A DNA stretch of 8,998 nucleotides. It comes from a virus (lineage: Duplodnaviria > Heunggongvirae > Uroviricota > Caudoviricetes). Position numbers and translations under genes: made by a program. Below the pieces are notes generated by a model that did no database searches, had not been told where the DNA came from, and saw nothing but the letters and a program-made list of their open reading frames with translations. Of this stretch, positions 7,639 through 7,740 are shown in pieces. Position 1 is the first letter of the stretch. Every line of letters begins with the position of its first letter. The stretch covers positions 1-8,998 of the IMG/VR virus record IMGVR_UViG_2657244940_000009, one strand, 5' to 3'.

Positions 7639-7670
7639 TTTTGCGTGACGGGCTGCGCCTCTATCTATTT

Positions 7671-7693
7671 GAAAACCCTTAAGTTGTTAAGGG
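7671..7693 (-). terminator. Candidate terminator downstream of ogt
   Basis: Inverted repeat CCCTTAA-GTTG-TTAAGGG; on the minus strand the stem is followed by TTTTC. Short T-run, so weak. Confidence 0.35.
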
Positions 7694-7740
7694 TGACTTT
7701 ACATAAAAGTGTGAACAAGCTGGCACAAATTGTTTAATGT

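Follow-up and report, generated by a model that had tools for sequence, protein, structure and literature searches.

How did the late region of a lambdoid prophage come to lie beside the chromosomal gene ogt with none of the early phage genes in between? The question is raised by the window, the stretch of 8,998 nucleotides analysed here, which is the reverse complement of the entire contig CDRA01000216.1 (8,998 bp) of the draft assembly GCA_000947375.1. One end of the contig lies in IS1 and the other in repeated phage DNA, and all of its genes except IS1 insA are carried by the minus strand (Table 1). A literature search found no paper on this assembly or on its sibling runs. The first-pass annotation had described a late region adjoining ogt at a distance of about 100 bp from a gene of 130 aa, and had found no replication, immunity or integrase genes there; the spacing and the absence of these genes both hold: the interval is 102 bp long (7639-7740, between an ATG at 7636-7638 and the ogt stop codon at 7741-7743 on the minus strand), and the window contains no replication, immunity or integrase gene. 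Also missing are an attachment site and the cI/cro immunity region, together with pR, nutR and N.

Table 1. Features of the window, listed from the chromosomal end to the phage end
Feature	Position	Strand	Remarks
IS1 left end	8756..8998	+	cut by contig end; IS1 matches, InsA Pfam
Lineage-specific remnant upstream of ogt	8257..8755	-	SCU-176 annotation
ogt, O6-alkylguanine-DNA methyltransferase	7741..8256	-	intact, 171 aa, PCHRV active-site motif
First 81 bp of ogt-fnr spacer	7660..7740	-	identical to sibling and K-12-like spacers up to joint
Novel joint, phage ant / ogt-fnr spacer	7659..7661	.	phage to 7659, chromosome from 7660
5'-truncated ant	7246..7659	-	P22_AR_C only; annotated 130-aa ORF = 7246-7638
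Strong intrinsic-terminator-like hairpin between ant remnant and roi	7208..7229	-	9-bp stem, 5 GC pairs, T-run
roi / KilAC-domain antirepressor-like gene, 240 aa	6449..7171	-	
ninG	5844..6449	-	
Ser/Thr phosphatase (NinI-like)	5176..5847	-	
Q antiterminator, phage-21 type, 162 aa, full length	4697..5185	-	PDB match, Pfam Phage_antitermQ
Late control region, pR'/qut/tR' by phage 21 homology, then three tRNAs	4341..4696	-	
tRNA-Asn	4531-4605	-	
tRNA-Thr	4453-4525	-	Rfam tRNA model, 49 bits
tRNA-Gly	4372-4446	-	
Terminator-like hairpin after tRNAs	4341-4360	-	
TerB	3772-4203	-	
DUF3927	3602-3775	-	
STnc100 sRNA, full-length match, between DUF3927 and nanS-p	3327-3536	-	Rfam 144 bits
nanS-p esterase	1172-3115	-	
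DUF1378	840-1022	-	
DUF826	533-802	-	
Holin	242-457	-	
Partial YdfR (ydfR-family gene at contig end)	1-237	-	

The position of the phage edge emerged from alignment around ogt and fnr, the check that the first-pass annotation had proposed. In 5,401 of 5,426 complete genomes, homology to the E. coli chromosome has its first base at 7660, and phage ant homology lies on the other side of this point, extending through 7659, or through 7661 when the closest phage reference, the sibling contig L011, is used. The adjacency to ogt is thus confirmed, whereas the start of the ORF, previously taken as the edge of the phage, is not the boundary, which falls between 7659 and 7660. The two parents share a 2-bp microhomology at this point, the dinucleotide TC at 7660-7661: the phage parent reads ...GCGCCTC/GTTCT... 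in L011, the chromosomal parent ...ATATGTC/TATCT..., and the window ...GCGCCTC TATCT.... In the sibling contigs the parental spacer reads ...AGATAGA/CATATATTT. The joint contains no N or gap; it lies 81 bp past the ogt stop codon and, in the parental, K-12-like arrangement, 114 bp ahead of the fnr start. In a K-12-like genome fnr is the next gene, 194 bp downstream of ogt. Two other origins were considered and rejected. An IS1-mediated deletion or inversion would have left an end of the element at the joint, and 7659/7660 has none; a phage attachment site in the ogt-fnr spacer is contradicted by the phage partner, which is the middle of a coding gene and not attP.

On the phage side, the 130-aa ORF is not a gene in its own right, as had been supposed, but a fragment of ant corresponding to residues 108-237 of the 237-aa Ant protein and starting at the internal Met108. 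The window retains Ant codons 101-237 and lacks codons 1-100; residues 101-237 show 100% protein identity to seven intact 237-aa copies (L007, L010-L015). Relatives' Ant proteins combine an ORF6N and a P22_AR_C domain, whereas the 130-aa product matches PF10548 (P22_AR_C) alone: the C-terminal domain is present and the N-terminal ORF6N domain is absent. In-frame stop codons occur just upstream of the fragment, within the ogt spacer. The ant fragment is a dead, 5'-truncated pseudogene.

The expectation of early genes upstream of this region is well founded, as all nine of the other contigs listed with an identical 240-aa Roi bear it out. In each of the nine the intact ant is preceded by ninE and ninB and, as far as the contigs reach beyond ninB, by ren, P, O, cII, cro, cI and N. 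The upstream genes are also present in L004; O and P are found in L004, L007-L009 and L013, and partly in L010-L012. The sibling contig L011 is 99.7% identical to the window over 3383-7661 and continues through an ant gene that is intact and has ninE, dam, ninB, ren and P ahead of it. Judged against these relatives, ninE, dam, ninB, ren, P, O, cII, cro/pR/nutR, cI and N would have been lost on the ogt side, together with the recombination genes, xis and int.

The chromosomal origin assigned earlier to ogt is borne out by its Pfam domains (Methyltransf_1N and DNA_binding_1) and by the stretch 7660-7840, which is 100% identical to many E. coli chromosomes. The upstream flank of the gene and the 81 bp downstream of it are identical to those of the siblings and near-identical to those of other E. 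coli; past these 81 bp the downstream flank is replaced by phage DNA. Downstream of ogt lies a weak terminator-like element: minimum-free-energy folding of the spacer reveals a hairpin with an 8-bp stem at 7675-7694, followed by TTTCAAAT, the spacer stretch as a whole being no more stable than shuffled sequences (z = -0.35). Upstream of ogt, K-12 homology ends at 8356, and the lineage-specific remnant consists of approximately 100 bp of the abgT 3' end, pieces of a LysR (abgR-like) pseudogene and McaS. The gene for this sRNA is intact (8603-8698, minus strand; Rfam score 112.8 bits) and lies 58 bp from the IS1 end; this lineage lacks abgT, abgB, abgA and the greater part of abgR in the interval from mcaS to ogt. 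The IS1 copy matches IS1A/IS1B at 99.6%, displays the left inverted repeat GGTGATGCTGCC and encodes InsA Pfam domains. Strain SCU-176 (L003) carries an IS1 in the same orientation approximately 427 bp further from ogt, an offset compatible with a deletion next to IS1 or with a separate insertion event.

The exact Ogt variant of the window is present on 16 contigs, which all stem from a single sequencing project (WGS sets CDQW, CDQY, CDRA and CDRO; runs ERR738820/21/33/34). The sibling contig L017 has its IS1-side end at the same base as the window, is 100% identical to 7660-8998 with 0 mismatches over 1,339 bp, and then proceeds through ogt-fnr-uspE-ynaJ-ynaI-mppA; L016 and L018-L021 likewise have a normal ogt-fnr spacer. 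The joint was not found in the 15 other contigs with this rare Ogt variant, no sequence spans the boundary in the 5,426 complete E. coli genomes, and a 30-nt pattern across the joint has no match elsewhere in GTDB representatives, IMG/VR or JGI metagenomes. Siblings that share both the Ogt variant and the IS1 site thus keep ogt-fnr, and the joint is not an inheritance common to related strains. As both parents exist within the clone and the fusion occurs only in this assembly, it is either a very recent event or a mis-join. The earlier description of the locus as a cryptic remnant is accordingly not established: the joint is absent from clonal siblings, a simple deletion toward fnr is unlikely for reasons given below, and the contig, only 9 kb long, ends in repeats.

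The reading that we regard as probable is that the joint arose very recently, in one isolate, by illegitimate (non-homologous) recombination. The crossover partners would be the ogt-fnr spacer and codon 100/101 of ant, a nin-region gene in a lambdoid prophage of phage-21 type. A microhomology of 2 bp is the typical trace of such recombination.

The strongest competitor is an artefact of assembly, scaffolding or gap-closing, or a chimeric read in a spot of low coverage, the real genome having both ogt-fnr and ant intact. We consider this explanation doubtful, and the evidence on it is divided. Of the clonal assemblies or runs sharing this Ogt variant, at least 12 in number, only one shows the joint, and a search of 153 billion gene positions places the exact 130-aa product on just one contig; the siblings were assembled in many pieces, their contig numbers exceeding 1,600, and the reciprocal joint was not found. 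Against these points stand features of the joint itself. Its parents share just 2 bp, so that no k-mer overlap would be able to merge them; it is free of ambiguous bases; and its microhomology is what a true illegitimate event leaves behind. L011, moreover, runs unbroken through ant, which is therefore not a repeat boundary in the clone.

The surroundings of the joint, on either side, lend the artefact some further weight. The phage-side edge lies 27 nt inside a mosaic boundary of ant N-domain variants and coincides with contig ends of other drafts. Contigs of other E. coli draft assemblies often end where the ant of the window is joined, a coincidence visible in three partial Ant proteins (P0204, P0210 and P0206, of 100, 101 and 102 aa), whose ends correspond to window positions ~7655-7662. 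On the chromosomal side, three of the four sibling Logan contigs (L020, L021 and L022, from sibling runs) end 283, 132 and 43 bp past the ogt stop codon, inside the spacer or shortly beyond it, which suggests weak coverage of the AT-rich spacer or a graph problem at its hairpin.

The same contig also crosses a repeat with mixed alleles. A stretch of approximately 0.9 kb (3383-4275) is present twice in the clone, once in the Q21 prophage and once in a second prophage with a 130-aa Q, a DUF968 protein and a methyltransferase (L023/L024). The window bears the alleles of this other prophage at 3489, 3490, 3568 and 3706-3714, whereas from 4275 rightward its sequence is that of the Q21 prophage. The contig is here either a recombinant or a collapsed path; since it traverses the repeat, the linkage of Q21 to nanS-p and the holin, with the TerB cargo, is uncertain. 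The public record has an N at 3802, a position where the repeat copies differ and where the window shows A. The second-prophage allele yields a DUF3927 protein of 57 aa rather than 54. Near the left end of the window, six SNPs cluster at 83-198 relative to the sibling contigs L023, L026 and L027, which suggests that yet another prophage copy of the lysis region takes over at the contig end.

If the joint is authentic, its geometry has to be considered. As ogt and the phage genes point in the same direction, a deletion, an inversion and a duplication or circle joint would all fit: a deletion places the prophage on the fnr side, a duplication or circle places it on the IS1 side, and an inversion allows any location, with the prophage in opposite orientation. 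The sibling contig L016 is informative in this respect. It is 55.6 kb long, with ogt 868 bp from one end and approximately 54 kb extending toward fnr; the 10 kb visible on the fnr side hold chromosomal genes only, which makes a simple deletion toward fnr unlikely. Were this stretch collinear with K-12, it would include the essential gene fabI. A tandem duplication is disfavoured, since the contig would be expected to branch at the joint and instead continues unbroken. A precise inversion would generate the reciprocal joint ...TGGACAGAACGA/CATATATTTACATC..., in which ant codons 1-100 run into the fnr-proximal part of the spacer. The predicted product of 112 aa (Ant 1-100 followed by HIFTSNIGILCC) has no exact match among 15 billion proteins, and among the cluster representatives shown no homologue covers the tail; this search would miss an imprecise joint or one located at a contig end.

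Whichever rearrangement is assumed, the fate of the severed phage genes depends on the control region that remains. The first-pass annotation had credited the window with an apparently intact module running from Q through pR' to lysis. Its first two parts stand. Q matches the PDB entries 6JNX_P (E = 5.6e-108) and 6P18_P (E = 1.8e-107) in phmmer searches over residues 1-162 of 162, and the DNA from Q through pR' to the tRNAs (4330-5190) shares 96.1% identity with OL657228.1, a record of phage 21, and 99.5% with phage JLK-2012. The features annotated under the match in OL657228.1 are an antiterminator, a response_element, a terminator and tRNA, and a partial phage 21 record (AJ237660.1, 95.3% identity) annotates a promoter within the match; by this homology, DNA corresponding to the cognate pR'/qut/tR' would lie directly downstream of Q. 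The Q-pR' region is identical in L004, L007 and L011 save for three positions in L004. The connection to lysis is the uncertain part, as it passes through the two-copy repeat, with endolysin and Rz lying off the contig. ARAGORN missed the tRNA-Thr between tRNA-Asn and tRNA-Gly. An identical sequence is annotated as tRNA-Thr in the prophage of E. coli NMBU-W12E19, and phage JLK-2012 annotates a tRNA-Thr within its match to the window.

Promoters and terminators were called by consensus scans. On the minus strand, these scans found the interval from 7208 to the start of Q free of consensus promoters. The operon of roi, ninG, the phosphatase and Q21 would then be left without pR and depend on read-through from ogt, which would encounter first the hairpin at 7675-7694 and subsequently the stronger one at 7208-7229 (AAACCCAGC-TTCG-GCTGGGTTT followed by a T-run). 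The latter is presumably a nin-region terminator that N-modified polymerase reads through. With pR lost and two hairpins in the path, the resident Q is probably silent. Q proteins are specific for their own qut sites, and the pR' late operon would consequently be expected to fire only in the presence of a co-resident phage whose Q belongs to the phage-21 specificity class. The proposal that co-resident lambdoid phages activate the cargo in trans through Q or N must be divided along these lines. Activation by a matching Q is plausible. N needs nut sites just downstream of pL and pR; it would be unable to act here, because in the relatives these sites lie in the part that is missing, pR and nutR included. 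A search for boxA-like motifs yielded none on the phage strand of the window, the sole match being on the wrong strand and at chance level.

These elements combine in a more far-reaching reading, namely that the joint is real and has a phenotype, consisting of an inversion or an fnr-removing deletion plus an orphaned Q21/pR' cargo operon that answers only to the Q of a co-resident phage of the phage-21 type. We regard this combination as unlikely. Conclusions about the loss of fnr or the trans-activation of nanS-p and TerB are premature until read-level support for the joint is at hand.

Least probable, and in our view very unlikely, is that the ogt of the window is a second, captured or transposed copy (IS1-mcaS-ogt plus 81 bp taken into the phage by an aberrant excision of the lambda-bio/gal kind), or that a duplicated phage fragment was inserted beside ogt, the native ogt-fnr and an intact prophage remaining elsewhere: the chromosomal part of the contig measures only 1.1 kb between IS1 and phage, ogt is co-directional with the phage genes and a phage-interior/host joint with almost no homology resembles those of specialized-transducing phages, but a second copy of either partner would be expected to create a branch at the joint, where the contig instead continues for more than 1 kb on each side, a genome devoid of O, P and the functions upstream of Q could not propagate as a phage, and the insertion point of IS1 agrees to the base with that of siblings with a normal chromosome, so that the ogt side looks like the native locus.

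Illegitimate recombination, the favoured origin, would align the window with several familiar arrangements. The cryptic lambdoid prophages of K-12 (DLP12, Qin and Rac) are deletion remnants that keep Q-like and lysis genes. The window resembles them in having a lambdoid Q, pR' and holin by chromosomal DNA, with replication, immunity and integrase genes missing on that side; however, these prophages are fixed in their lineage and known in their full extent, whereas the joint described here is private to one draft whose siblings have both parents intact. The 162-aa Q matches Q21 over its full length and the attached control region is that of phage 21, but the copy in the window is severed from pR and nutR and, compared with phage 21, is supplemented by a third tRNA (Gly) and by TerB/nanS-p cargo, as in phage JLK-2012. 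Like lambda gal and lambda bio, the window fuses phage-interior DNA to host DNA with essentially no homology and, like lambda nin5, it has a breakpoint in the nin region between P and Q with removal of the upstream terminators. Unlike in these lambda derivatives, the joint also removes pR, O and P, and its product can therefore not be a viable phage. The closest complete counterpart is the thrW prophage of E. coli O10:H32 NMBU-W12E19 (NZ_CP042892.1), which is 98% identical over 13-7659 with the same gene order; it goes on with a full ant, ninE, dam, ninB, ren, P, O, cII, cro and cI, and then with recombination genes and int at tRNA-Thr (thrW).

In terms of annotation, the 130-aa 'gene' is better labelled as a truncated ant pseudogene, and the contig should not be taken as proof of a cryptic remnant. 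The finding has little significance outside this isolate. If the joint resulted from an inversion, fnr would be separated from the sequence that ordinarily precedes its promoter, and the Q21 late-control genes would come to lie behind ogt; if it resulted from a larger deletion removing fnr, the isolate would be a natural FNR-less strain. Rearrangement joints between prophage and host are well known, as are decaying lambdoid prophages, and the joint would add one more example to a familiar class of events.
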